Part shown: one piece after another, positions 14,942-61,300 of the stretch | How positions within the stretch are numbered: position 1 is the stretch's first letter | Layout of the letters: each line of letters begins with the position of its first letter | Assembly: GCA_045837725.1 (NCBI GenBank) | Contig: JBEWZL010000179.1 | Location: 1-64,000, forward strand | Source: Vermamoeba vermiformis | Taxonomy: Eukaryota | Direction: 5' to 3' | DNA: 64,000 nucleotides | The notes under the pieces: model-generated | What the model saw: the letters and a program-made list of their open reading frames with translations, nothing else | Database searches by the model: none | What the model was told of the DNA's origin: nothing | Translations under genes and position numbers: made by a program

Positions 14942-15844
14942 TTATACTAATTGGCCGTTATTGAAGTCCCGATGCAATGCTTCTAACAAGAATACAATGA
15001 CTTTCTCTTTCTTGGCGTGTTGCACGACGCGGAGCAAATTCAAAATTTGAAAAGGTGCGTAATATGCGACATACCATTCAAATTTCGAAAATTGGTCGAC
15101 GATCAGGTGATCCAAATATTTGAGCGCAATTGCCATCTTCGTCGGATCCAAATCGTCCATATTCTTCAGCATAGTACTTGTCCAGGCATATCGCGTGTCT
15201 TGGCGCCACTTAACGATGTCTTGCAGAGGCGACTCCATGAACGTGTTCAGAAAATCGATGACGTAGATCTCTTTGGCATGAAATTGACCGAGGGAATTGA
15301 TCAATATGTTAGACATGGTCAAGTCTCCGTGGCACTTTCCGACTGGTATGAGAGTCTGGCACTTCTCTGGGACGAGTCGATCTGCGAGGTACTCGCGACA
15401 TTTCTTCAAAGTCTCGGCATACAATGCATTGCTGGCGAGCACTTTCTGCGCGGACTCGTTCTTGTCGATGTTACGGAACACCTCCTCAGTCTTGGACAAC
15501 ACGCTCGTCAAATCCAGAGGGATCAACTTTGACTCGTCAATTTCCCGCTCGATGAGCTCTACTATTGCATCATTGAGCGACATTAGACCGTCCTTAGTGC
15601 TAGAACTCGCAAAGCTGAAGCACTCATTGTAGGGCAAGTACTCCATCTCTACGGTAGTGTTAGTGTCATCAGTACGAACAGATCGTATGCTAGCAGTTTT
15701 AATGCGAGCGCTACACTTGAAGCCAATCTGCTTCTCGATTTGCAAGAGCAATCTTGGATTGCCTCGCTTAATGACGACATAATCTGCACCCTGCTTGCTA
15801 ATGAAGACTTCCGCATCCGGTGAATGCCCTTGCAGTTTGAGCAT
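14942..15844 (-). CDS. Intronless APH/choline-kinase-like phosphotransferase
   Basis: Brenner-type HGDLTMSNIL and YVIDF motifs in a single uninterrupted ORF. The first ATG is at 15844; the track ORF extends to a TTG at 15907. Confidence 0.85.
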   Translation of the reverse strand: MLKLQGHSPDAEVFISKQGADYVVIKRGNPRLLLQIEKQIGFKCSARIKTASIRSVRTDDTNTTVEMEYLPYNECFSFASSSTKDGLMSLNDAIVELIEREIDESKLIPLDLTSVLSKTEEVFRNIDKNESAQKVLASNALYAETLKKCREYLADRLVPEKCQTLIPVGKCHGDLTMSNILINSLGQFHAKEIYVIDFLNTFMESPLQDIVKWRQDTRYAWTSTMLKNMDDLDPTKMAIALKYLDHLIVDQFSKFEWYVAYYAPFQILNLLRVVQHAKKEKVIVFLLEALHRDFNNGQLV

Positions 15845-16056
15845 TTTAAGACTTTTTTGATGTCGGTGTTGTTGATGGTGATTTTGCAATGAAAAACAAT
15901 TCAACATTGAAATGCTGAAGCTTTACATGTAAAACGTCAAACCTTGGAAATTGTGATTCAGGTATGTGCTCGCATGATTTTCAAAATTGCAATTTGCTCG
16001 GTATGACCACACCGTCGATTTCACTAACCACTTGTCGTGAAGCTAATGACACCAAC

Positions 16057-18328
16057 ATGACATCAAATGATGGCTCGACAAATCAAAACCGGTTCATTAC
16101 CGTTGTTGCCTTGGTTGGACTAGTTGCTGTGCAGACTTTAGTAGCGATTATCTACAAACTCGCTCAGACCAACGGCAAATATGCATTCTCGACTGCATCC
16201 GCGCTCACGATGGCTGAATTCATCAAGATCTGGCTCAGTTTTGGACTGCACACCCGAACTACCGGATGGAAAAATACGATCCCAGAACTAAGAGAGCATA
16301 TCAAAAAAGCCCCTTACTTTCAAATAGCGGGATTAGCATTTTCATACTTCGTCAATAATCACTTAAATTTCTATTTATTTTTGTGGGCAGATCCCGTTTC
16401 AATTACCGTAATGAAGTCTGGAGCATCCTTCATTACGGCAATATTATCGTGGATAGTACTTGCACGATTTATTTCCCGCGTCCAATGGAGTGCCATATTG
16501 CTACAAGTGGCAGGATTGTGCCTTCTCCAGTACGATCCGTGTCGAAATTCAACAACTTTGGAATTAAATGGCTATTTCATCATGTTTATCAGCGTCTCAA
16601 TAGCTTCTGCCAATGGAATTTGGAACGAACGATTGCTAAAATCTTACGACTGTTCCCTGAATGTTCAGAATATGATGCTCTACACATCTGGAACAGTTTT
16701 CAACTTTTTTCTCTTTTTGGTTCATAGCAATGAAATTGGCTTCTTTGAGGGTAATGCGGAATTTTGCAAATTTCAAATATTAATTGAAATTTGGTTTAGG
16801 CTACAACGTGCCAGCAATAATTGTGGTGTTTTTGAACGCAGTCATCGGCCTTACCATTACAGTCATCTACAAATACACCAATGCTATTGCTAAGACATTC
16901 TGTTCGGCAGTGGCAACTGTAGTTCTATTCATTGTCAATGCAACCCTGTTCAACACACCAGCGACACTCAATTCAATTCTCAGTTGCATCGTGGTGTTTG
17001 TGGCAACTTATTTGTATACACAAAGCGCTGCCGATAATTCGAAGCCAAAGGAATACAACAAATTGCCCACGAGTCAACTCGACGTCGAAGAGCCAGCGCC
17101 AAGCAAGTCCTGCCTTGGATTTTTGTCCGCTCGTCGCATTGGAGCAGTGGTATTCGCTGCGCTGATCATCACTTCAGTGGTAATCTCTATTCAGACTGTC
17201 AAAGCCTCAAGTTCCGCTTTAATTGCATCGAATTCAACTATCAAGACACCAATAGCCGTATTTGCACCAACTGCGTCCGCTTCTTCCGAGTTGCGAATTG
17301 GTGGTGTGGTCAGTCCTCCGAGCAGAGAGTTCTTCGACGACATTCTGGTGATCATTCACTTTCACAGTCCCCACTTTAGACATTTGCCGGTCATTCTCGG
17401 CGAGTACGGCAAAGTATTCAAAAACATCGTCATTTGCGCACAAAAGAAAGCGGATTTGGTCGATTATGTTTGCACAAAAGGTACGCTAAGTATTGAATGA
17501 AGACTTCGTCTAACGCTTGACCACAGATCAAATTACAGGAGGTGGTAACTTCATGTACACGTGCGTGGCAGACATTATGGAGGCATATCCAAACTTCAAG
17601 GGCTACATGGCTTTCCACTTCGACGTTATTATCAATTATTGGAACTTCCCTAGCTTCGACAAAACTAAGCCGTGGATTTCGTTGACCGCGGACAATACAG
17701 GTCCGTATCCCATCAACAAATACACTCAAGACCAGTGGCCAGGTACAGGATATTATTTTTTGATTGTCGCACGTGCTTAACTGGCTATCAGATGATTGGG
17801 GCTGGTGGGGCTCTGAGTACGGCGTTGTTGCGTGTAAGGAGGCCGTCAAAGAATACACAGCGGAGGATAAGAACAAAATGGGAAAAGCATGGGGATTCGA
17901 AGACGGAATGTACAGAGGTAATACTACCTTCTCACCCACTCCATGTTTTAACCGTGTATTTTAGGCATGGGTGATCTCTACTATATCCCCAAAGCCAAGA
18001 TCACCGAGTACAGCAGATTGGCACGCATGTTCCAACGAAACAAAGTCTTTCTTGAAATCGCCGTGCCTACTATAGCGAGCCTGATTGACTTCCCAGCCTA
18101 TCCAACGAACATAACGGGTAAGTAAACTGCTCGACAGAATGATTGTCTAATTGCACTGCAGGCGTTTACGATTGGAGCTATTTGGGTGGTTGGGATCAAG
18201 CAAGGTCGTGGAGTTCCATTTACCTAACTAATTTGCACTTTGTGCACCCGTATCCTTGGTTTAAAGACACGGCGTACGAGGACTTTAGAAAAATGATGCA
18301 GTTCGGCTACACAGCGAATAACTTGTAA
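16057..18328 (+). CDS. SLC35A-like nucleotide-sugar transporter fused to a STELLO/DUF288-like glycosyltransferase domain
   Basis: Transporter helices (AEFIKI, YFVNN, QWSAILLQ, NERLLK, YKYTNAIAK). ORF 16784-17500 runs in frame from the last transporter helices through a further TM segment into DDILVIIHF. Later exons carry FDVIINYWNF, DLYYIP, VFLEIAVPT and HFVHP. Confidence 0.8.
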
Positions 18329-18368
18329 ATATACTCTTTATGAATACAACATCTAACACTAAAGATTT

Positions 18369-21300
18369 TTAAAACAAGCCAGCGTCCTTCTTTACGCGCA
18401 ATTGTTTCCATTTCGGGAATGCTTTGAAGGCGGCACGTTTCATCTTGAATCGCTTTTCAAACTCTTCTTCACTCAAGAAGTCCTCCAATCGCTCAGGATC
18501 GACACCAGGAGGATACGGCTTAACTTTCAATCGATCAAAGTCAAAAATCAAAGCGCCGTCAGCAGCCTCGGTGACTTGCTTGTCGGTCGTGGTGATCGAT
18601 CCAGTTGGCGTTGGTCGTGCGTTCTCTTTAGGGGCCTCGCTTGCCTTTGTACCCTCCATCTCCTTCTTGACCTCGTCAACCAATGCGGGATCAACATTGA
18701 TCAATTGGGTGGAGAAGTGCTTGATCTCAGCCAACTTGCGAGTCCACGGATCTTGACCGGACTTCTTCGGGTCCCAGCCGTGGAAATGAGCAGTAAATTG
18801 AGGAGTCTCGTGTCCTTCGTGGCACAAGACGAGAGGGCAGGTCTCAGAAGTACGACCATCATCTGCATACTTGATGTAGTCCTATAAAGTGCGTGTCAAA
18901 ACCAACCCGGATCTAAAAATGGATCTTAGTGCTTACGACTGCGGTGTTCATGCCCATTTCCTTCTCGTTCTGAGTGGACTTGCTGCCAACCCAAACGAAG
19001 ACAACGTCAAAAGCATCCAGCAACATTACGTCGTCTGAAGTGGATGTCAGATGTGCAGAACAGAAAACCGAATCAAATCAATTTAAACTTACCGATATCC
19101 AAGTCGTCTTGCGAAAAATTGTGAATTTCGAACACTTTGAAAACACCGGTGCGGTCAGAGCATTGAAACAAGCGAGCTTTGATGTCGTGCGCAGCCAGAT
19201 ACGGTTCGTTGGAGTACGGCTGTTTGCCGCCCAAAGCGGACCAAAATTCATCACTCTCGCTTCCTTCTTCAACGACAGTTACGGGTTTAGTAGCATTCTA
19301 GAAAAAAAAAAGGCGGTTAGGGTCGGATCGAGGCAAGATCGTGACCAGATCAAACAAGATTTTCCAAGGACAAGGTCCTCGATCAAAAAGAAAGCAACCG
19401 TTCGATCAGCTCAGCAAAAAAGCAAAAAGAGCACAACACCTCCGATTCCCAGGTAGTCTCCTACCCCAGTACTAAGAAGGCCTGAACAAGCTTAACTTCG
19501 CTGATCGGACGGGAAGCGGTGCATTCTTGTTAGTGTGGTCGTGCCCGAGACGCTTTGCAACAACGTGTTCGGGTCACTACTTGCGAACACTAACAAATCG
19601 CGCACCAATTCCATCCCGGTCTCCGGACAAATTTCATTTTTGGATACGATCTACGAAAAAAAAATCTGGTCTGAAAGTGAACTTACTGCAATAGCGCGCT
19701 GAGCAATCAAGCCAGTAGCCATAGAACGCTCAAATTTGTTGGCTCCCTTGCCAATCCAAGTGAAAGCTTTTTCAGGCAGATCGAGCACAAAAGCGTCGTT
19801 GGAGTTCAGCGAAGTAGCAACCTACACACATTAGTATACTGCAACGGTAGTATTAATAATACGGCTTACAGCTTCCACTTGAATGGCACGAGTGTTGACT
19901 TCATTTGTGCCGCGCAATTGGAACAACACTTTGGTGGGCTTGTTGTCGACCCACTCCTCACGCGAACCCTTGCGAAGGATGTACGTGCCTTCGAAGTGCG
20001 ACAAGAAGTGATCGGGCTCTTTGTTTTGGATAACACGGATCTAATGCGCATGAATTAGTAAATGTTAGACATGAAACCCAACAAGTACCTGAGATGCAGA
20101 TCGTCCAAACTTATTGGCGTAATCTGATGACAATAGCGAGCCAGCACCTTTGTCGTCCTTAAGAGAGCAGTTAGCTTGATAGTGCAACGAATTAAATGGC
20201 ATACTTGGCTCGAGTCACGTCCTTGCCAATTGTACACAACGTGACGATAACCACCACCGCGCAAGTGCACGGAGAAGTGAATAATGTAGCTGTTGCCAGA
20301 GTGGAACAAGCCGTATTCTTCCATAGGCAAGCTGTGCATCTTGGAATCCTTGACGAACCAGATCTGCAACTCGCTCTCGAGATCCGGATCCTTTGAAGGC
20401 ACAGTATCAACGAGCTCTTCGTGTGCGATTTGATATTTCTCAGGGTGATGTAACGCGTCGATGTTGACCTTTTCTTGGACGAGAGTGCCAGCCATCTTGT
20501 GCGACTTCTCGATACGCTTGCCGAAGTTCTCGGGCGTGTCAATGTATTCCTTGAAGTTGCCACGGAACTTGGCCTTGAACAAAGCGTTCTCAACGCCTTC
20601 AGTGACCTTGGTAATAGGTGTCCAGTTGGGACGTTGGAAGTCGTGCAAGAACTTCTTGGCAATGTTCATGGACTCACTCTTCTCTTGCGCGGTAGATTTA
20701 CGGCCAGTCCACACAAAGATCTCAGTGACGCAGTCGAGAATGAAGCAGTCGTTAGTGTCCAAGTGGCTGCGGTCGAGAGGCTTGCCACCCAAGTCAACTT
20801 CAGTGATCTGAATCGAGCCACTGGCATCGCTGACACGATACAACTTGGTCTCCTTGGAGTACTGCTCTTCGAACTCTACGTCATCGCCACCACTGCAAGC
20901 GCGTTAATATCACTTCTGTACAAGAAAGATACTTGGAGATTTACCTGACTTCGTCTTGAATTTCACCTTTGCCGCCCAGAGCTGTCCAAAACGCGTCATT
21001 TTCCTTGCCGTCATCGATGATTACAACCTCGGCCTTAATTCTGTTCATACGCTCATCGCGGAGGCGTACGGTCAAATCCAGTGCCTTGGCCTATAATATG
21101 GTCAGCAAACTAAGCTTGGCACTCCTATTTAAGAATTTCCGACCTTTTCCATCCGAGATGCGCCCTTGCCGTTCCATTGATAAATGACGGTGTCGGTATC
21201 CAAAATGAAGACGTCTCCCTTGTTAAGCGACTTGACTGAGACCTCAACTTGCTTGACACGAATGTTTCTTCGTCCCTACAACTCAGATGTCAGTCGGAGT

Positions 21301-30774: not shown

Positions 30775-33700
30775 TTAATCAGAGGTAGCAGCGCATTTGT
30801 CTTTAATGCAACCTTCAGCGCCGCAATATTGGTTGATCACTCCAGTCTCAAGGAAATCTCGCATCTGATCTTGGGATGCTGTTTCTTGTCTAGGACAGCC
30901 GTGCGTATTGAAGTCAGTATTAGCAGGCAAGTTGTTATAAGGACCATCAGGAACATTGCGATACTTCCAGATCATGAATGCACTCGAGTTACTGAATGGG
31001 GCAGTGCGATCTGGCAAGCCGAAAAGAGGCTCGTATGATGGTGCGATGGCTGAAGCTCCATATGAACGCGCCATAATCATTGCACCTAATGGCGTCACCA
31101 ACGAGTCACCGTAAGCAGCTACGAAGGAGAGGTAAGTACAAACGAGGCATAAACATGTGGTATTGAGGTGTACCTTGCAACAATGCTTGTTTGGGCTGGA
31201 AGCCTGGCTGCACGTCACGATTCAACAAGTTGAGCCAGCCAGCGGACTCGGCGGGGTCCCAGAATGATTGGATGAGACTGAGCCCAACACGAATGTCAAA
31301 CCAAGAGTAGAACTGCAAGTGCATGAATTGAGAGTAGAAAGTGAACGCGCTGGAGCGGCCGAGGAGTAGCGCAAATGGAGCACCAGGCACTTGCAAGGCC
31401 ACGCGAGTGAAGTCACGTGAGTAAGTGGCAAAACCGCCACCGACGACTGCACCCTGCGAGTTGCCGTAGAACTGACGAGGCGTGTCAGCACTCAGCAACT
31501 GCACGCCGTTGGCCTTGAGTGCGTCATTGGCACTAATTTCGTTGAGCAACATGCGGAGACCCACTGCACGTGCGGCCCAGCCCTGGTTGACAGACTCGGG
31601 CAAGATCGGGAAGTCAGTCAAATCGTTGATGAGCACCTTGAGCACGGCAAGGACGTCGAATGTAGCCATGCCGTACCAGTCTGTGGCGTAAAAGATCCAA
31701 TCGTACTTGTTGGCCATAATGTCAAATTGCTTGTCCAACAACTCGTCACGATTACCGAACAAACCGTGGCCGTACTCGATTAACATCTTGGCTGGCGTGG
31801 CTTTCTTGATCAACGAGCAAGGAATGCGGAGCAAAAAGTTGTTGTTCTTGGTGGCTGTGGCTTTCGGTTCCATTACACGTTGACCATTTTCACGCGGCAA
31901 CATTGAACCACGTGCAGTTCCGTTCAAATAAAACGGTGCTGTGAAGTGACCCCAAACATTTCTTGCCATTGTCTCGTCAGTGGTGCAGTCGAACTCGTCA
32001 ACGCGATCAATGGCGAAGGTGTAGCCTCCTTGCTCATACAGTGCGAGTGCATCGTCGCGCATGTACTGAGCACGACCGAGACTGCTGTTCATAGAGTTGG
32101 TAACAAAGTCCCAAGCCATTTGCAACTCCGAGCGAGCGAAGCCTTTGTAAGTAATCGTCAGTTTGACACTTGTTGACAGGTGTCACTAAGAGTTCATACC
32201 TTCAGCGGCCAGAGCCGGGAATACAATCGTGTTGTAGTTGCTCGACATTTGATCGTTACTGGTCGTCTTATCGATCATTGTCTTCATGCCGTCAGGTGCT
32301 GCAATGACTTCGCCCTTCGAGTTCGTCAGTCCACGAATACCCACGACGTATCTCGTGTTGAAATTTAACGAGATTGCAGGCTGCATGACAACAACAGGCC
32401 AGTTAGGATCTACTTGGTCAATTTCGAGCCAGTGTGGCACTCGTTGACCGGTCGCAGTGTCGATCAAAATTGAGGTGGCGTTGGTGAGGTTGTACAGAGC
32501 CATATCCCAGAACGGGATCATCGAGGCATTGACGACATCAGGTAAGTTGAATAACAACGGCGCTGTCGTTGAAAATCCATCGAGTTCGTTCCAATATTTA
32601 GGGTTGATTCTGTCGCCCACTTTGATTTTCGGCAACGAGTTCGCGCCAAAATTGACACGGTATCCAGTTGGGGTTGAAGTGTCCGTTACGAGATAGTACG
32701 ATGACGGATAAGGCAAGATGCATGCTGACGGATCTACAGGGTTGCAATCGCTGTAGCAGTTGAGATCTCCTGGATCGCAGTAGCCCGTGTTGGATCCGAC
32801 TTGAACGGCTGAAATAATCGACATAATGACGAAAACGACAATGACTACCATCACAATAGTGTAGGCAATGTAAGTGGCTGTGAATAACGCCCATCTTTGA
32901 GCCTTAGTCTTCGGCTTAACGACGTATTTGTTTTTGGTCTTCTTTATCCACTTCCATTTCATAATTGTGACCACGATAAGGGCTGATAGTAATGCAATTA
33001 ATTGATTGAGAATTATAAGTTAAGTCTACCATGTCATTTAAAGAAAAAATCGGATTACGAGATTTCGGTGATTTTAATTAAGTAATTATGCGGTGTCGCA
33101 GGATCCTGTTGCACGAAATTACGCACGCATCGCTTGAAGCTGCGACGGAAGTTTAATATGACGCTATTCTCACTTACCAAGCTCAATAGCCATTGAGAAA
33201 GCGCAGAAAATGAAGTAAAACAGTAAAGCGCTCCACAACCAAGTCCAATCTTCATTTACGACGCCCGTAGGCTCGAATAGGTAGTCTTTTAATATAGGCA
33301 GCACGATGATAAATACGATGAAATTGCAAATGATGTCTATCCCAAGCCAAACAATGTATGCAATTTCTAATCCAGCGTGTCTCTTTCGGGAAAAGACAAA
33401 TCCTGTATTTAACATTAATAAGCTTCGGAAAATATTTCTATTAATTTTGTAACATTACCGATTCCCAAGAACAAGTAATCCAGAAAAAGCTCGAACACGA
33501 AGGGCATTACGATGAAGAATTTCCCAAGCCACGTGTACAATGCAAACGTCGCAAATATACGTAGTGAAACTACGCCGAAAGCGATGTTCAAATAAGTTTG
33601 GATGAGTGTCACGATCTGATCAATGACATGTCGTTAGAATTACATTTCATTATACAAGCTTGAACGCGTAGGGAACTATATATTTTATAAATAACGATTT

Positions 33701-35587: not shown

Positions 35588-35660
35588 GCCGTGATAGCTC
35601 AACTGGTAGAGCGGCAGACTGAACATCTGTAGGTTTTCGGTTCAACTCCGAATTGCGGCA
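35588..35660 (+). tRNA. trnF-GAA: tRNA-Phe(GAA)
   Basis: 73-nt cloverleaf with anticodon loop CTGAACA, T-loop GTTCAAC and a downstream T-run. Position 37 is an atypical C. Confidence 0.85.
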
Positions 35661-39139: not shown

Positions 39140-42100
39140 TTAACAACTAAAGATCAAATTCTGCGCTATTAATGGCTTAATAATGTCCCAATCGACGACT
39201 TTGACAACCTTTGCAGTACTTTTTCTGATCGTTCTGAACGCCTTGATTGCATCCAAATACGGACTGAACGAGAACGAACTGAAGATCAACTCCCAAATCT
39301 CGATGGGCAATATGTCGAAAAGTGCTGAGCAGTGCACGATGCTGATGACATTGACGATCCAATCTTGAATCTCTGAGGTCAGTTCTTGTCGTCGCTTGTA
39401 AGCTAAGGTAGCGTAATGAATGTAGTACGAATTTGTTCGGACATTATCATCAATCAGTGAGATAACCATAGGACGACGGAATAATGCAATAATGGCGGCT
39501 TTTTCGTCCAGTCTTTGGTCCACTTCGAACCACAGTAAGTTGGGCAGTGTTTCCAGTACTGTCGCAAAGTCCGTCGTGCGTGCAACTGTGCCAAGTTTCA
39601 CAACGCGGAGTGAAGGTAGTGTTGGCAGGACATTTAATAACTGTTGCAAGAGAACGTTGGGTATAACTGTGTCCATGAATACTAAGGACTTCAGCTCGGT
39701 AAATTGTCCGAGCGAGTTGAGTATTGTCTTTGTGAACGAAATGTCAAGTTGGTGCAAAGTCAAGTACTCGATTTGATTGGTCTTTTCAGGGTCGTTGAAC
39801 TTGATAAAGTCTTGTTCTGTGCAGCAGGATGCATCATCATCTAAGCTCCAATACATCCAATTTGACTGCATCGACTCATTCATATGGCAATACGGATGAT
39901 GATACGAGGTGTCTGACACTACGTCAATCGCTGGTTTCGCGGAAACTGGTACGTTCTTCCAAGGATAATTGCTGACGTTAGAGACGCTAGCCCGAAAAAC
40001 CCATTCATCCACATTCTTCATTCGTTTGTGAACTGTCCATGGACATTGCTCATCAGTGCCTTGGGCAAGAGTTGATTCGCCATTCAACGAGCTAACGAAA
40101 TCAATCAGAACTTGCGGACTCTTAAGCGCCACTTCTATCGCCACTCGCTTCGTTGAAATCACTCGCTTTAATACGTCTAATTGGCACTCTGAAGTGAGTT
40201 TCAAAGTTTCAAGTTTCGGCAAGGAAGTGATTAATTCTTCGTACACTGCCGTCGGAAAGAGTTCGGGAGTGTTGTATTGCTCACTGGGGTATGGTGAAAA
40301 TGACAGCTGTCTGAGACTTGGGTGATATTTGAGTGCTTGTAGCAGCGGAAAATTGTTGAAATTGAGTGTCAGGTCGATCGATATCAATGACTCGTTCTCT
40401 AGCAATGCTTCACTTAATTCTTCCAAATATGGCGTGGCTTCACTATCTATTTTTATCACCGCTTTTTTCAATTTTATTCGAAATGGCTGGGCTGGTTTTA
40501 GCTTCAATAAACTGTTCAATGTCCACGGATCTGACACTTCGATATAAAACGACTTCTTTTTTTCGTCATCTGTTTGATAGACTCGATGGTTTGGCACAAA
40601 CGGCTTGTCCAAAAATCTGTTCTGAAAGAAGTCCGAAAAAGTGTCGAAGTACTTAGTAGCAGCATAAGGACAAAATATCCTCATTTTTTCGTCGATCTGC
40701 TCCAAATTTCAGCGCTGAGTTAAAATAGATTGCAATTGAATTAAATATTACCTGAAATCTTTCGTGCGAATTGGTTTGGCCCGTGCGATAAGTGACAGCC
40801 AAATGACAGGAGTGAGAGCTGTGCCGTATGACATAATGACCATAAGGCACTAGCGGTACTTCATCAGAAAGTAAGTCTCCCATAAATCCAGCGGCACTGT
40901 CAGATGCATACAATTAAAAAATTATTTCGCAGAAAATTATTGGAAATACTTGCACGTTGCCAGTTGTAATACAGTGGGGAATGTGCATATAATAAGTGCG
41001 ATAAAATTCGTCATACCATTTGCTTAAAAAGGAAAATGTTAGATGTACTTTTAAAAAGTAATATCACGTTGGTAGTCACCCACCTTTTTAAAATCCGTGG
41101 CTCAAACAAACTTTTTGGCTTCACTTCGACCCGTTGTCTGCGATACTTATAACTAACAGGCAGGTCACTACGAATTCGGTTAACGATCTGTGAATTATTC
41201 AGGGTTGACTAACCTTTCTCCATCCATAACTGCATAACCTTCATATTTGTCATAAATGTACTCAATTACAAGGGTTTTGTCAAAACTAATCAAATACACG
41301 TCCCTTGGATGTCCCTTAAGCAGTTCTTCTCCGCTCTTGCTATCAAGATGACCAAAAAACCCTCTATCGGCATTGTGATTTAATACCGCTCAGTCTTAAA
41401 AACTTTTACACTTACGGATGGTTGAGCAAGAGTTTGACGAGCGGCATATGATTGCCGAATGATCGCATCAGATCCGCAAAAGTGAAGATTGTCACGAAGC
41501 CAGTACCGAATTTGTCTAATAGCCCTTATTAGTCTTTGCAAGTATTAATCAGACACTTACCTAAGAGCGATAAGAAGCGGTCGAATTCATTCTCGTAAAA
41601 TACGCTGGCACTTGGGCAATGTTCTTTGAATCGCTGTCCAAACACCTCTCGTTGTACGATTATTTTCTAAAGTAGTTTAAATAGTCAATCCATGTAGAGA
41701 TCAAATAACACTATACGTTACGTACGTCAATACCAAACACTTTCTTCCAAAATTCTTTGGCGTGGTCTTCAATGTTGCACTCGATAAGTGCTTCGTGAAA
41801 TTTCCTTTGCGTCTCTTCATCGTCCAACCAATTCACTTCTGACTCGCGCAACAAGTAGTGCACGAATATATCCAAGTGATATTGTGCCTCTATCAACAGC
41901 TTTTGCACTTCAATGAACAAGTAGCGGGATGTGAACAGCCTGTCCTTCGCATCATCACCAGTTTTGGCCTTGATCATCGTTGCAAGGCGTTGCATGCACG
42001 TGAAGAAATGTTGATAATGATAGTCGTCTACGATATGTTTAGCCGTTGCTACTGCCTTGCTGACAATCTCGAGCTTGATCCGACACACCTTGAAATTAAC

Positions 42101-45709: not shown

Positions 45710-48700
45710 CTAGTCAAATTGATACAATACCTCAGGAGGAGGTAAAACTTCTTGCCAATCGACCACCTTAGTTACCCTGGGAGAATTGGCGATGATTTTG
45801 CTTAGTACGCCTCGTACTTCCAAAAATGGCCTGAACGAGTACTGAAAGCTAAATATTTGCTCCCAGATCTCCACGGGGAAGCGGCACAACGCTTCAGGAG
45901 ATCGTACAATATTGTGCATAAGAACTATAAAATCTAAAATTTCGTCGGTGACTCGCCGTCTTAGTGCTCGCGTGTAGTGCTGGAATCTTCGGCCAGTCAA
46001 TCGATTTTGCTCGGTACACGATGCATGCACTGAATCTTGAAGGTCTACTATCACACACGCTGGACTTGAAAGTAGTTTTGCAAGGTCATATACGTGCAAG
46101 CCAAAAGACGCTCCGCCGATTTCTAGGCGCACCAAATTAGGAATACTCTCAATAATTTCTTGTTCGCTGAATACTCTTCGACCTCCAATTATTGAAATGG
46201 CTCTTAATGACTTCAGTTGTGATAATCCTTCGACAAACTTTGACTTGCTTTCTATTTCAACCGAGCTTTCTCTTGAATCTACTAATCGCAATACTTTGAG
46301 TCGCTGTAGCTTCTTCAGTAAGGCATTTAACTGGTTCATAAAATTGCCATCGTAACCTCGTAGACTGAGATACTCCACATCGGACCTATCTTCGAGAAAG
46401 TTGCTGAATTCAATCAGCGAATCGGGGCCAGCATGCTGTTTGCCACAACATACAACAGAATTTGATACTAAAAACACGGCTTTGCTCTTTCTAATATTCC
46501 ATATTGTGCACGAAACCTGGTGATGCATGCCGCAGAATTTCAGCTGAGGAACGTTGTAAAGTTTTTCCGCGACGCTGAATGCAGTATCGTGTATTGCTGA
46601 TGGTTCAGTGAATGCTATTAATTCTTTCAGACTCTTCATTCCGCTTGTTGTATGCAAATCTGAATCTTGCGGATCGACTAGAATCAATCTCTCAATGTTG
46701 TTGAACGATGCGCCGCCTCTTCCAGCACAGCTGTTAATACGAAGCTCTTTTAGCGGCAACTGGCCGATAGTTCTAAGCACTTTGTCGTTGTAAATTTGTG
46801 CCAACGGCTTCATGATATGCAATGCGGTCAAACTGGTATTTGTTGTGAACAGTGCTACAATGGCGTCCAGAACTTTTTCGCTGTTGATGAAATCAAGCTG
46901 AACCACCTTCAGTCTTGGTGCTTTGATTGCCGCAAGTATCAAATCAGGCGAGCCAAACCCAAAGATGACTTTGTTGAGGCGTGGCAGGGATGCCATTAAG
47001 TGAACCAAAGCTTCATTGACGAATGACTTGTCGACCATATCCGCTAATTTGAGTTGTCTTATATTAGGGTGTCTGTGCAGTGCACGCAAAAGCGGAATTG
47101 ATTGGCTTGTTGGCGCAATAGTTACACTGGTCAGAGACTCGTTATTTGCAAGCGCTGCTGCCAAAAGGTCCACTCGCTGCACTGATGTGATATCCAAATG
47201 TCGCATAGTCACAATTTTAATCGGCTTCTTCCTACGCAAATAAAAATTCATTGACGTTGGTTCTGACACTTGTCGAGCATTTAGCTGCTGTTCTGTTTCA
47301 GTCTGATGCACTCTATAATCGAACTTGTAGGGTGTAGCCGACCGGGAACCGCTTGCTTAAAATATCTTCAATACTGTCGTAATCCGCGGTACTAAAAGGA
47401 GCTCTCCATCCTTTGCCAGAGAACTGCGTTTAAGGTCAAAATGCTGCTACAGAAACGAATGTAATTATACAATACCTTGAAAAATGAACTAAGCCAACTA
47501 TTTGACCACGCCGCCCCGCATGTTATCTCCACCCCCTCGCGGTCTGCAATAAAACCAACGATGTATGTCTGAAGTAAATCTGCTAAAAATTTCTTTTCTG
47601 ACTCCGGTAGAATCCCGCAATATCCACTGTTTAATAGTCGATCGGTTAGTGTTTGTATTTTCGGAATTCAACTGACTTACGGGCAATTAACAAGTGATGT
47701 TTTTCGCATAAACGGTATTGTTAGCTCCGGTAGCGATGCTACCAAGTCATCTAACGATAAATAGATTTCGGCATTTGGCAGATCCAACGAAAATCTACAA
47801 AGTCAGATAGTTGCTATAATAAAGCTTATAATTACCCTGAGTATCCGGCCACAATGACGTGCTTCTTTATGCCATGTTCGATGTATTCAATTATCAAATG
47901 CTTATTAAACCGCAGCAAGTAACTGCCGTGTGGACGGAGATAAAGCAGTCTAGGACCTTCTTTGCCAATATACCCTAGGAAATATCTGCGTACTACTGTT
48001 AATGTCAATTAAGTGAAATTTTGCCAGCTCTTACTGGCAGTTGATTGCTTGTCTAATTAGCTTGACGTTGTTGCCAAAAGATCGCATCAGATCCGCGAAT
48101 GCAAAAAGAGTCACGAAGCCTGTGCTGAATTTATCCAACAAGCGCATCAATTCTTGAATCTCCGCATGGCTCCAATCAATCTTTGCGAACGAGCACAGGG
48201 CCTCTTGAAAGACATCGCGCTGTACTACAACTTTCTAAAATTTAATCAGCTAATTTTCCCTTTTCTGCTTGTACCTACATCAACGCCAATGTTTTCGCGC
48301 CAAAAGCTCTTCATAGTACCAGTCAAATGAGCAACTGTCAGATTTTCCAACTGCTGCACGAGCACTTCGTTTTGACTCCAATCTGCGCCAGTGTTTTTTG
48401 CAACATAATGAATAAAAATATCCAAATGATAGCTCATCGCTTTCAGTAGTCGTTGAACTTCAATGAACAAGTGCGACGACCGTGTCACTTGATCCAATTC
48501 ACCGAAACCTTGTTTGGACATGAGAAGTAAACGTAAGTCGACGAGATACTTCCCAAATACCACCAAGTGATAGTTGTCAATAAGATATTTCGTCAAAGGG
48601 AGCTGCTCTACCACCGTCATCAGCTTGACGTCACAAAGTGTCAGATGCGCTTTTGCTTCGCGCGCTCTGCGATTATCTTGGCTAAATATGACTGCAGTCA

Positions 48701-58391: not shown

Positions 58392-61300
58392 ATGCGTAGA
58401 ATATGTTACGTAGGCTTGATTTTATTGTTAATTCAATGCAGTCAAGGTAAGTGATCGGATGAGTCAAGATCTTGGCAAGCTCACGCGTTGTAATTTTATT
58501 ATTAATTAATTTATTAAATATTGAACGTGTTAGAGTAATTGCACGGTTCAAGAATTAAAGAAAATCTTCAGTGTTAAAGCAGAAAATTTCCTTTTTAATT
58601 AACGAAGATATTAAGCAAATTAACAATAGCCAGATCCGATTTAACCCTCAACAATATTAATTTCAGCTATTTGATATCGCGTCGTTGCAAAATTTAATGA
58701 TTCTGACGTGTCACGTATTTCAGCCACGTCGTTCTCGTGGGAGGGCCTTGAAACAGCCAACAAAGAGCTGTTTTCTGCGCGTGCAGCCCACACAGTGAGC
58801 GTTGTGGACAATAAGAACGTATACATCTTTGGTGGTCACAAAGGAAGAAATTTGTGGTATAACGATCTGCTGATGCTTGATCTCGGTAAGTACCCTACCG
58901 CTATTGCTCTCAAAGTAAACAAGAGCACTACTTATGACCTTTGTGCGTATCAGAGACCAACCAATGGCAGACTATCGATGCTAAGGGTGATATTCCTTCA
59001 GCAAGGTGCGTGGCTCGAGATCTTCAAACATTCCTAGTTTGTTTCTAATATTTTCTTGCAGAGGAGGTCATAGTGCTGTGGTGTATAACAATAACATTTA
59101 CATCTTTGGCGGCGAGTCAACAAGCGCTCAGTTCATTAGACGAAACTTTGATGATTTATATGAGTTCAACACGAGTGAGTAGTAAATATATAGGACGTAT
59201 TGATGCACCTATTAACGGTCTCTAAAGACACCAATCAATGGCGCAAATTGTCAGCTCGTGGACGCGGACCTTCAGCTCGATCTCACCACAGCACTAGTTT
59301 AGTTGGCCACACACTCTACGTGTTCGGTGGCAATGATGGATTTGACGACTTGAACGACCTTTATTCATACAACCTTCGTAAGTGTTAATTTTATACTTGA
59401 CTTGTTGGCGGCCCATAGCTCACATCCACGAATAGTTAGCGGCGAATGGAAGTTCCATGAGTGCACAGGCGACGTGCCCTTAGCACGATCTCAACACTCG
59501 GCAGTGGTTTTTGATGATAAGATTGTTATTTTCGGTGGCAAGGCAAAGAACTTTTTCTTCAATGACACGATCGTTTTGGATCCTGGTACGCCACCTTTCT
59601 TTGCTATTCGTAGTTGTCTGATGTTGCATTCTAACAAAATAATTACTACAGCCACCTTCTTGTGGCAAAAAGTCGCAGAGCCTGCTGAAAGACCCATTGC
59701 TAAGCGCGCAGGACATTCTGCAACTGTAGCGAACAATTTGATGATCGTGACCGGTGGAGTTAACAGTGAGAGCGATCAGATCTGCTTGACCGAAATATCC
59801 GTACTCGATTTAGGTAAGTTAAATATTTCAGCAAGCGTTGTCGAGCTAACCACGAACAGAAAAACTTGTATGGAGTTCGGATGTGGAAGTCAAGATCAAG
59901 ACACGCTCCCTTCCCCTCTCGCGCAATTTGCACGCTACTACGCCTGTCATTCGTGGAGCCAATAACAATGTGTTCGCTTTGGTCGTTGGTGGACAATCGT
60001 GCTCCAAGTCTGACGTGTTTGACGATGTTTTCAAGATCAGCCTCGATCAGGTGGGATCTTTCTACACTGGTACGTGATTTCAATTTAAATTCGTTGTATT
60101 GTACTCACTACCTTCAGGTATTATGAACATGTTTGGCTCAACGACAGAAAAGCAAGGAGCTGCAGCGATCGACGCAGCAACGAAACCAGCAGCAGGAATT
60201 CGTTGGCAAAAAATTTATGCTGATGAGTCATTCCCCTCACCACGCTACTACCACGCCACTGCTTACGCGCACAAGTAAGTCATACACTTTTTCAAAACGA
60301 GAAATCTCGCGGATCCAAAAAAAGAAATTTTCGTGTTGTTGCGGTTTGATAAGGGTCGTGTTCGCGAACTACCGCGTACGGCAAGTAGTGACCCAAACAC
60401 GTTGTTGCAAAACGTCTCGGGCACGACCACACTAACAAGAATGCACCGCTTCCCGTCCGATCAGCGAAGTTAAGCTTGTTCAGGCCTTCTTAGTACTGGG
60501 GTAGGAGACTACCTGGGAATCGGAGGTGTTGTGCTCTTTCTCTTTTTTGCTTTTTGCTGAGCTGATCGCATGGTTGCTTTCTTTTTGATCGGTGCTAGGA
60601 AAATCTTGTTGATCTGGGCACGATCTTGTTGCTTTCTTTACCATCCCTTCGCTACAATTTTTTTCCATCGACTGGCTTTGCTAGTCAGATCGCCAACAAA
60701 ATACTTCTAAACCGGCCAAACACGAGACTGTGATCATTAATGGAGCTGGCACGTGCAATCGTTCTTTCTAACCGAACCAGGCCCTGTTTTTGCGCTGCGA
60801 CGGGTCAACAACGGCCGTTTAGCTCAGTTGGTTAGAGCATCGTGCTAATAACGCGAGGGTCCCAGGTTCGATCCCTGGAATGGCCAATTTTTTTTTAACA
60901 TTTTTGCTGTTGAGCACGCCTTCGCACCAACATTTTATTCGATTTTTGGTTCGGGACCTCCCCTAATATTGCCTCCAATTAACTCCTATTGCTGGCAGGC
61001 AATTCTACTCTTTTGGCGGCAAGCAGGCATCAAGTTGGACGCAATACTTCAATGAGCTGTTTGAGTTCGACATAGGTATGCTTCTACTACTACTAATCAA
61101 CACTCAAATTAACTCTTCATTTAGCCAGCCGAAAGTGGTCGCAACTTAGCGTTAGTAACGCACCCGATGCCCGTGGAGGTATGTTAACTACTCCCGCTTC
61201 GAGCACCTTTCTAATTTCCGCAGGCCACACGATGACGTACAGTCGCTCTCGAAACCAGTTAATTGTCTTTGGTGGTGAGAGCAAGTCCTATTTCTCCACT

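Follow-up and report, generated by a model that had tools for sequence, protein, structure and literature searches.

A transporter-glycosyltransferase fusion with a STELLO-C-type domain and a divergent APH-fold kinase gene in Vermamoeba vermiformis, and a candidate CDP-sugar pathway

SLC35A4 is described in parts of PMC8192872 as a CDP-ribitol transporter. For Arabidopsis STL1, a protein of the STELLO (DUF288) family, passages of PMC4906169 state that the motifs DD205-206 and DVD297-299, the conserved aspartates of a putative glycosyltransferase domain, are required. In bacterial capsules, BcbE and BcbG of Pasteurella are required for the fructose branches (according to portions of PMC13552107), and KfoE of E. 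coli K4 functions in capsule fructosylation (according to portions of PMC7925653). A transporter-glycosyltransferase fusion beside a sugar-modifying gene, the same kind of layout as the one described here, is mentioned in passing in the literature for another unicellular eukaryote; it has a different transporter subfamily and glycosyltransferase annotation, and is set apart by this description rather than by its sequence. The literature searched, outside which most subscription papers and supplements lie, held no paper on an SLC35A-STELLO fusion and none on the product of the kinase cassette described below. A substrate for any member of the kinase family was likewise not found in the literature searched.

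A sequence-only reading of the window, the 64,000-nucleotide stretch of V. vermiformis contig JBEWZL010000179.1 that was analysed, had placed the start codons of a phosphotransferase gene and a transporter-glycosyltransferase gene about 210 bp apart, and 212 nt indeed separate the minus-strand start at 15844 from the plus-strand start at 16057 (Table 1). The plus-strand gene was resolved into six exons encoding 678 aa with zero internal stops, and its five introns are all GT..AG and 44-49 nt long. Its product consists, in order, of an SLC35A-type transporter, one extra TM helix (aa 345-363, 17138-17194; hydropathy 2.37), a stem, and a STELLO-C-homologous domain. As had been proposed, the junction lies within one ORF: the transporter C-terminus, the TM helix, the stem and the start of the lumenal domain share one exon (16800-17480).

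Contigs of the runs X1 and X2, which come from two studies, splice across all five introns at a depth of a single record, so the transporter and the transferase are on one mRNA; the predicted fusion was thus confirmed. The X1 contig (record 3, 1738 nt) spans 16352-18324 and the X2 contig (record 19, 1987 nt) begins at 16049, both skipping the introns; the first joint in X2 sits one base off, reading GG..TT. The RNA label of X1 and X2 is a guess by the search tool, and the introns are nevertheless skipped in their contigs; introns 3 and 4 are also spliced in X11, which is recorded as RNA. The kinase ORF was covered by contigs in four of four runs. Of the intergenic stretch, at most 166 nt (15883-16048) lacks contig coverage. 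As the gaps to the neighbouring genes are 329 and 39 nt, compared with 212 nt for this pair, a promoter common to the kinase and fusion genes is only suggested, and the spacing is ordinary for a compact genome. The other divergent pair examined, villin and its adjoining gene, lies roughly 600-700 nt apart, the villin start being only approximate.

Table 1. Positions of the features of the locus within the window
Feature	Position	Strand	Remarks
Kinase ORF	14942..15844	minus	300 aa, without intron
Divergent intergenic region, candidate bidirectional promoter	15845..16056	no strand	212 nt between start codons
Plus-strand gene, exon 1	16057-16750	+	ATG at 16057; approximately TM1-7 of SLC35A-type transporter
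Plus-strand gene, exon 2, 5' part	16800..17020	+	Last three transporter helices; PF04142 and mouse CST alignment
Exon 2, middle	17021..17320	+	Polar linker (predicted cytosolic), extra TM helix, Ser/Ala/Pro-rich stem
Lumenal STELLO-C-type GT-A domain (predicted)	17321..18329	+	aa about 406-670, exons 2-6
Plus-strand gene, exons 2-6	16800-17480, 17527-17742, 17792-17917, 17965-18117, 18162-18329	+	Spliced reading

Along the whole transporter model, PF04142 (cut-off 27) was matched with 62 bits over positions 5-229 and 27.9 bits over 243-315, and the best-matching solved structures for exon 1 were the CMP-sialic acid transporters (CST) of maize (6i1r, E 8e-18) and mouse (6oh2, E 6e-14). The pocket was read from pairwise alignments at low identity and comprises E54, K57, Y97, N100, N101, N104, K120, A123, T127, N205 and Y209 in exon 1, and N244, I247, I251, T252 and K263 in exon 2. 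Mouse SLC35A1 residues E52, K55, Y98, N102, T128, N210, Y214 and K272 are kept in these alignments; the nucleotide-binding E52, K55, N102, N210 and K272 correspond to E54, K57, N101, N205 and K263, and Y214 corresponds to Y209. S261 is replaced by Thr (T252), A105 and A253 at the beta-phosphate positions are both replaced by Asn, G256 by Ile (I247), and K124 by Ala (A123), with K120 one turn away.

Parts of PMC8192872 and PMC8411240 state that UDP transporters carry Gly at Y214 and Ala at S261, both positions marking cytidine selectivity; with Y209 and T252, the window transporter has neither residue of this SLC35A2/A3-type UDP-sugar pattern. In the same partial sources (PMC8192872/PMC8411240), a Gln pair of SLC35A2 at the A105/A253 positions is proposed to bind the beta-phosphate, G256N blocks transport of CMP-sialic acid and not of CDP-ribitol, and K124A abolishes CMP-sialic acid activity. 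The SLC35A1-type pattern for CMP-sialic acid is also absent, K124 being lost and the G256 position carrying no small residue. We infer from these residues that the transporter may be specific for cytidine. Because the cytosine-selecting Tyr is kept, amides occupy the beta-phosphate positions, and the sugar pocket is narrowed, a small CDP-linked donor is predicted, most likely a small CDP-linked sugar. Such a predicted pocket fits a route initiated by a kinase.

The lumenal domain had been likened to the STELLO C-terminal domain, and its homologs agree. A search with exon 3 found 68 homologs, 61 of which were scanned against Pfam; PF03385 was matched at E<=0.01 by 37 of the 61, and 20 of these passed the cut-off. 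The HMM comparison thus supported the assignment through the homologs, while the five window pieces that bear the domain, scanned as single exon pieces, individually gave no match to PF03385. The spliced domain was matched by 64 of the 68, and the remaining four (P0084, P0100, P0111, P0125), showing no match to it, were dropped. A profile of 46 homologs gave 218.6 bits over aa 406-669 (264 residues), support that is independent for exons 2 and 4-6 only, exon 3 having been the search query. The two-domain STELLO proteins P0095, P0087 and P0063 match via their second domain (24-26% identity, E 3e-20 to 4e-15). The GT75-like first STELLO domain is absent, and the fusion protein has no room for a further domain. 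The suggestion that the locus could reveal the donor of STELLO-like domains is therefore narrowed to the second, C-terminal domain, which is present; the first domain, with the motifs required in STL1, is not.

At 17616-17624, the window protein has H-F-D, a variant of the family x-D-D motif (consensus [NHQ]-D-D), to which we presume DD591-592 of STL1 to be equivalent. Read against the canonical metal-binding DxD motif of GT-A glycosyltransferases, the last Asp, found in 46 of 47 rows, is kept; the middle position, Asp in 39 of 47 rows, F in 4 and Y in 2, is Phe. Also kept are the GD-x-Y-x-P loop (family D-x-x-Y-x-P), the F-x-E-x-A motif (E603; the Glu is conserved in 36 of the 40 rows covering the site) and the C-terminal HP. 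The fold was predicted on the homolog P0107 as a stand-in for the window protein (pLDDT 92.7), and the top nine rows of its VIA-align comparison were all GT-A glycosyltransferases (Z 11.3-14.5). The closest was CHPF/CHSY3 (Z 14.5, rmsd 3.2, 207 aligned), and further matches included C2GnT (Z 13.4), B3GalT5 (12.5), Fringe (12.4) and the galactofuranosyltransferase GfsA (11.3). Scores were lower (Z 8.7-9.0) for CpsY and GNPTAB, which are Stealth phosphotransferases. On this stand-in model, the lumenal domain would have a GT31-like GT-A fold, in line with the expected glycosyltransferase fold. An Atlas look-up of the 57-residue start of the domain returned only leads below 0.9, to GT31 clusters. 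The phage protein L106, a weak match (E 0.024), was rejected as unrelated.

The kinase carries the Brenner motif HGDLxxxN and a DF motif, and matches the Pfam families EcKL (E 4e-6, over the cut-off) and APH (E 5e-3). Its structure model (pLDDT 93) was closest in fold to APH(4)-Ia (Z 18.0, rmsd 3.6, 248 aligned), followed by glucosamine kinase (Z 16.4) and LicA (Z 15.6, one of many similar scores). Pfam and structure comparison thus agree with the anticipated APH fold, and the protein is predicted to be an APH/choline-kinase-fold small-molecule phosphotransferase with catalytic motifs. It is not identified as LicA, whose Z is below that of APH(4), and its match to Pfam Choline_kinase is weak (16 bits, cut-off 29). 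The analogy with LicA and phosphocholine drawn from the sequence is weak, as the lumenal fold is GT31-like and no LicD/fukutin-type chain appeared among the 50 matches listed.

The kinase is retained in relatives at 98, 87 and 68% identity, and shares about 30-35% identity over its full length with kinases of bacterial and phage cassettes. Beyond the close trio, the nearest kinase is P0004/L081, a protein from a viral contig; this grouping has a support of only 93/79 (not starred), so no donor lineage is claimed. P0051, a kinase of 390 aa that is extended at its C-terminus, grouped with the window kinase in a quick tree (SH-aLRT 97) but not in the careful tree, and the match of its tail to a nucleotidyltransferase (E 0.04-0.06 in a single comparison) was not significant; for these reasons it was not used as support.

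A nucleotidyltransferase-like gene was present within the fetched flanks of kinase relatives at 200 of 202 loci (genomes 80/80, viral 42/42, metagenome 78/80). It was adjacent or fused to the kinase in 76/80, 38/42 and 68/80 of these sets, respectively, and accompanied by a HAD gene in 76/80, 40/42 and 73/80. The commonest nucleotidyltransferase partner matches the NDP-sugar pyrophosphorylase 4EVW (E 4e-10), and the loci also hold GT2, EpsG, WavE, pyruvyl transferase and flippase genes. The kinase family occurs in bacterial and phage surface-polysaccharide cassettes. A search of the 64-kb window detected none of the partners NT1, NT2 and HAD. STELLO-C was found in 0/26 and 0/5 kinase-bearing prokaryotic and viral genomes (overlapping sets, searched without a positive control), and so no ancient prokaryotic link between the kinase and STELLO-C was found.

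In the relative P0060, which is 75% identical across exon 1 and 52% across exon 2, the fusion and its layout are the same and the pocket residues of the window transporter are retained. A word-based search of exon 1 against longer proteins gave one match among 2866 candidates, and one with exon 3 gave none; both are weak evidence of rarity. A transporter domain was present in 0 of the 68 STELLO-C hits, and scans of metagenome contigs, viral contigs and phages for the DNA around the fusion or around STELLO-C yielded nothing.

We lean slightly towards a pathway in which the kinase, a phosphatase and a nucleotidyltransferase make CDP-X and the fusion protein imports and transfers X. In this reading, an unusual small sugar or polyol is added to secreted or surface glycans by a single pathway, with the kinase at its first step and the fusion at its last. 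A cytosolic kinase would phosphorylate a sugar or sugar-phosphate, which a HAD phosphatase and a nucleotidyltransferase encoded elsewhere would turn into the CDP-linked donor; the kinase-phosphatase-nucleotidyltransferase logic is that of ADP-heptose synthesis. The ten-helix SLC35A domain would exchange CMP for CDP-X, bringing the latter into the Golgi lumen, and the eleventh helix would place the tethered STELLO-C domain in the lumen, where it would transfer X to an acceptor, probably as an inverting, metal-dependent GT-A enzyme. That the kinase feeds the neighbouring transporter, that the fusion resides in the Golgi, and that the donor is handed over within it are inferred. X may be a furanose or ketose such as fructose or xylulose, a tentative proposal; fructose is an analogy only, as the relationship between the kinase and BcbE-type proteins is distant. 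One transcript, a predicted STELLO-C/GT-A domain, the linkage of the kinase family to nucleotidyltransferases and a CDP-type pocket support the sequence-only reading in part; its LicA analogy is weak, its shared promoter is only suggested, and its channelling of the donor is conjectural.

The kinase and the fusion may also be chance neighbours, a laterally acquired kinase having landed in a gene-dense genome beside a real fusion that uses a common donor. The adjoining gaps are short too (329 and 39 nt), the window holds no partner enzyme, and the searched prokaryotic and viral genomes that bear the kinase showed no STELLO-C. We nevertheless consider this unlikely: the kinase family is nearly always found with nucleotidyltransferases, the adjoining transporter independently appears CDP-specific, the kinase is kept in relatives (98, 87, 68%) and present in spliced-RNA runs, and the villin pair is separated by roughly 600-700 nt.

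A Lic- or ribitol-type route, in which choline-, ethanolamine- or alditol-phosphate is the kinase product and CDP-choline or a CDP-alditol is the donor, whose phospho-group the lumenal domain would pass on with release of CMP, is improbable. The pocket resembles the narrowed, CDP-ribitol-competent state, LicA is among the kinase fold matches (Z 15.6), and CMP release would directly suit antiport; however, the lumenal fold groups with inverting GT31-like enzymes, above CpsY and GNPTAB (Z 8.7-9.0), the HAD partner in most loci better suits a bisphosphate route, and Choline_kinase is matched at 16 bits against a cut-off of 29. Most doubtful is a reading in which the transporter carries a CMP-ulosonate (Kdo, Kdn or sialic acid type), the lumenal domain is non-catalytic or unrelated, and the kinase is uninvolved. 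The best solved relatives of the transporter are CMP-sialic acid transporters, x-D-D is changed to H-F-D, and DD591-592 is dispensable in STL1 according to parts of PMC4906169; against this, the loss of K124 and the bulky G256 position are both unfavourable to CMP-sialic acid, H-F-D or H-Y-D occurs in other family members (F 4/47, Y 2/47), and the remaining conserved residues are intact.

In the fusion, a transporter pocket that is readable and assayable is coupled to an orphan glycosyltransferase domain present in plants, animals, protists and bacteria, and this makes the STELLO-C donor directly testable. With transporter and transferase in one chain, the fusion also offers a natural test of whether the donor is handed from the one to the other. 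Should the link to the kinase be true, a small eukaryotic locus would reveal the product of a common bacterial and phage polysaccharide cassette. More speculatively, and with less than even expectation, this may be a Golgi pathway using a CDP-sugar not known from eukaryotes, perhaps a ketose or other furanose, with laterally acquired capsule-type enzymes and a transporter tethered to its own STELLO-C transferase. Such a module would recur among protists and filamentous fungi, and both the STELLO-C donor and the cassette product would be defined by it.

Compared with known systems, the window protein resembles SLC35A1, the plant CMP-sialic acid transporters (6oh2, 6i1r) and SLC35A4 in PF04142 and in E52, K55, N210, Y214 and K272; it differs from this group in having Asn at A105/A253, Ile at G256/T260 and Ala at K124, and in adding an eleventh helix and a lumenal glycosyltransferase domain. 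With STELLO/DUF288 proteins (PF03385; Arabidopsis STL1/2) it shares the second domain and a type II-like topology, whereas a transporter takes the place of the GT75-like first domain and H-F-D replaces x-D-D. Neighbours of the BcbF family, taken as BcbE orthologs from their position beside TIGR01689 hits, contain an APH-type domain of a distinct kinase family, distantly like the window kinase (hhalign 83%, E 9e-6, 18% identity). The BcbE-type kinase is fused to an N-terminal nucleotidyltransferase-like domain beside a TIGR01689 phosphatase, whereas the window kinase stands alone; the cassette HAD2 does not match TIGR01689. The bacterial and phage cassettes, arranged as NT1 - HAD - kinase - NT2 or kinase - NT2::HAD, have a kinase of the same family as the window kinase, which lies in the window without those partners and instead beside a putative Golgi transporter-glycosyltransferase fusion.

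The APH-fold gene (the kinase) and its head-to-head neighbour, in which an SLC35A-type transporter is fused to a STELLO C-terminal (STELLO-C) domain (the fusion), are a real and expressed feature. Their start points are 212 nt apart (15844 versus 16057), in line with the spacing of about 210 bp proposed from the sequence alone. Contigs from two studies (runs X1 and X2) each skip all five fusion introns in a single record that runs from the transporter through the whole lumenal domain; the splicing of introns 3 and 4 is also seen in run X11, which is recorded as RNA. The transporter and transferase therefore lie on one transcript, as had been claimed; separate transcripts were not seen in the X1 and X2 contigs. 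Contigs reach 15882 on the kinase side and begin at 16049 on the fusion side, so no more than 166 nt between them are left uncovered. Genes are densely packed in the window, which is eukaryotic, has short GT..AG introns and probably comes from an amoeba-like protist. The IP3-receptor gene starts 329 nt beyond the kinase stop, on its downstream side, and the stops of fusion and villin are 39 nt apart; given these short neighbouring gaps, the closeness of kinase and fusion is by itself weak proof of a relationship.

Features of the two-gene locus and of the rest of the window
Feature	Position	Strand	Remarks
IP3-receptor-like gene, large	14612 to about 6750	minus	left of kinase; RIH_assoc and MIR matches
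Kinase ORF	15844-14942	minus	300 aa, no introns
Fusion gene	start 16057	plus	6 exons, 5 introns of 44-49 nt, open 678-aa protein
Villin gene	right of fusion		gelsolin and headpiece matches
5S rRNA gene	19428-19546	minus	one of a dispersed pair, equal scores (104.7 bits); between villin exons, same strand as villin
Two adjoining ORFs, apparently one gene	31106-33019	minus	TM helix, then domain judged by eye to resemble secreted lipase-like proteins of bacteria; no Pfam match at E 0.001
tRNA gene	35588-35660
Long single ORF	39140-40708	minus	522 aa; C-terminus F-box-like by eye
Long single ORF	45710-47356	minus	548 aa; C-terminus F-box-like by eye and like that of the 522-aa ORF; weak LRR match
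5S rRNA gene	60419-60537	plus	second of the pair (104.7 bits)
tRNA gene	60813-60886

Residues about 11-305 of the fusion match the transporter family PF04142, which upholds the SLC35A-like assignment, and the best solved relatives are the CMP-sialic acid transporters of maize and mouse. Next come a linker of polar residues, a hydrophobic helix (345-363) and a stem rich in Ser, Ala and Pro. SLC35A proteins are described as having ten helices with cytosolic N- and C-termini (PMC8411240), so the extra helix places the last domain in the lumen. The same layout was found in a relative's protein, P0060 (75% identity in exon 1), which stops at the intron 2 position, consistent with genomic read-through.

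Pocket residues were mapped on mouse SLC35A1 using pairwise alignments of low identity, with the numbering checked. E52, K55, Y98, N102, T128, N210, Y214 and K272 are conserved, and S261 is replaced by Thr; Y214 and S261 are the reported cytidine determinants (PMC8192872, PMC8411240). The A105 and A253 positions are both Asn, and the matching positions of the UDP-galactose transporter are reported to hold Gln, proposed to bind the beta-phosphate. Ile occupies the G256 position and Ala the K124 position, changes of a kind reported to block CMP-sialic acid transport. All these residues are common to P0060 and the window fusion, and in combination they predict a small, CDP-linked donor.

Searching with exon 3 matched 68 proteins among 1.84 billion representatives, and 64 of them also matched the spliced lumenal domain. 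STELLO PF03385 was matched by 37 of 61 scanned homologs (above cut-off in 20), and two-domain STELLO proteins align to the lumenal domain via their second domain only, supporting the STELLO C-terminal likeness; the remaining exon-3 matches are mostly standalone proteins of 250-400 aa. The model of a stand-in homolog, P0107 (pLDDT 92.7), has GT31-like GT-A enzymes as its closest folds. In the window protein the metal-binding motif of the family reads H-F-D, so that its last Asp is kept, and the D-x-x-Y-x-P loop, Glu603 and a His-Pro at the C-terminus are retained as well. For Arabidopsis STL1, aspartates DD205-206 and DVD297-299 are reported as required and DD591-592 as dispensable (PMC4906169). 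Taken with the second-domain-only matches, this means that the locus could show which donor serves the second STELLO domain, as the sequence-only reading suggested for STELLO generally, and not which one serves the GT75-like domain. In Azospirillum, STELLO-C is its own gene directly upstream of an annotated STELLO-family gene in a polysaccharide locus (hhalign 98.8%). The STELLO-C gene locus on the A. brasilense plasmid NZ_CP012919.1 (L203, 8989-11038) also carries a GDP-mannose dehydratase and glycosyltransferases.

The predicted kinase model has the expected APH fold, which is common to anomeric sugar kinases and LicA, with no single one favoured. Three of its 59 homologs are close (98, 87 and 68% identity); most of the others share about 25-38% identity across the greater part of the length, and the few named ones are bacterial. 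A nucleotidyltransferase-like gene flanks the kinase relative in 80/80 genome, 42/42 viral and 78/80 metagenome loci, is adjacent or fused to it in 76/80, 38/42 and 68/80, and occurs together with HAD in 76/80, 40/42 and 73/80, many of the 202 fetched loci being from related Bacteroidales and hence not independent. The cassettes, ordered NT1-HAD-kinase-NT2 or kinase-NT2::HAD, are set inside capsule or EPS loci, and NT2 matches pyrophosphorylase 4EVW. Across L001-L122 they are widespread, occurring in capsule loci of Bacteroidota as well as in other bacteria, in phages and in giant-virus bins. Judged by its predicted genes, the cassette is a parts list for a kinase-phosphatase-nucleotidyltransferase route to an NDP-sugar; our literature search found no paper on its product. 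Outside the three close homologs, the kinase nearest to that of the window has an NT2::HAD partner and lies in a glycosylation island of a viral contig (L081, 1-11365); by eye, the ORFs around the pair include NeuB-like, cytidylyltransferase-like and epimerase-like ones.

To make a donor that carries a diphosphate, a phosphorylated precursor is required, and such a precursor is what the family of the neighbouring kinase would supply. The predicted CDP-linked donor and this family role together form the strongest tested link between the two genes, one that depends on low-identity alignments, and we somewhat favour a shared pathway with a CDP-linked donor. Adjacency by chance, which this pocket prediction opposes, is the less likely reading but carries appreciable weight: the neighbouring gaps are short, neither an NT nor a HAD partner occurs within the 64-kb window, searches of 26 and 5 prokaryotic or viral genomes that carry the kinase (overlapping sets, no positive control) gave no STELLO-C, and none of the 68 STELLO-C matches is a transporter fusion. 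A phospho-transfer route appears improbable, and a CMP-ulosonate donor or a non-catalytic role more so, the substitutions at G256 and K124 arguing against the CMP-ulosonate.

Among known systems, fructose in the Pasteurella capsule is reported to require BcbE and BcbG (PMC13552107); BcbE-like kinase domains are only distant relatives of the window kinase, which does not belong to that system. In the fusion, a transporter-glycosyltransferase design that the papers found mention only in passing, for O. tauri (PMC5082852), takes a new form.
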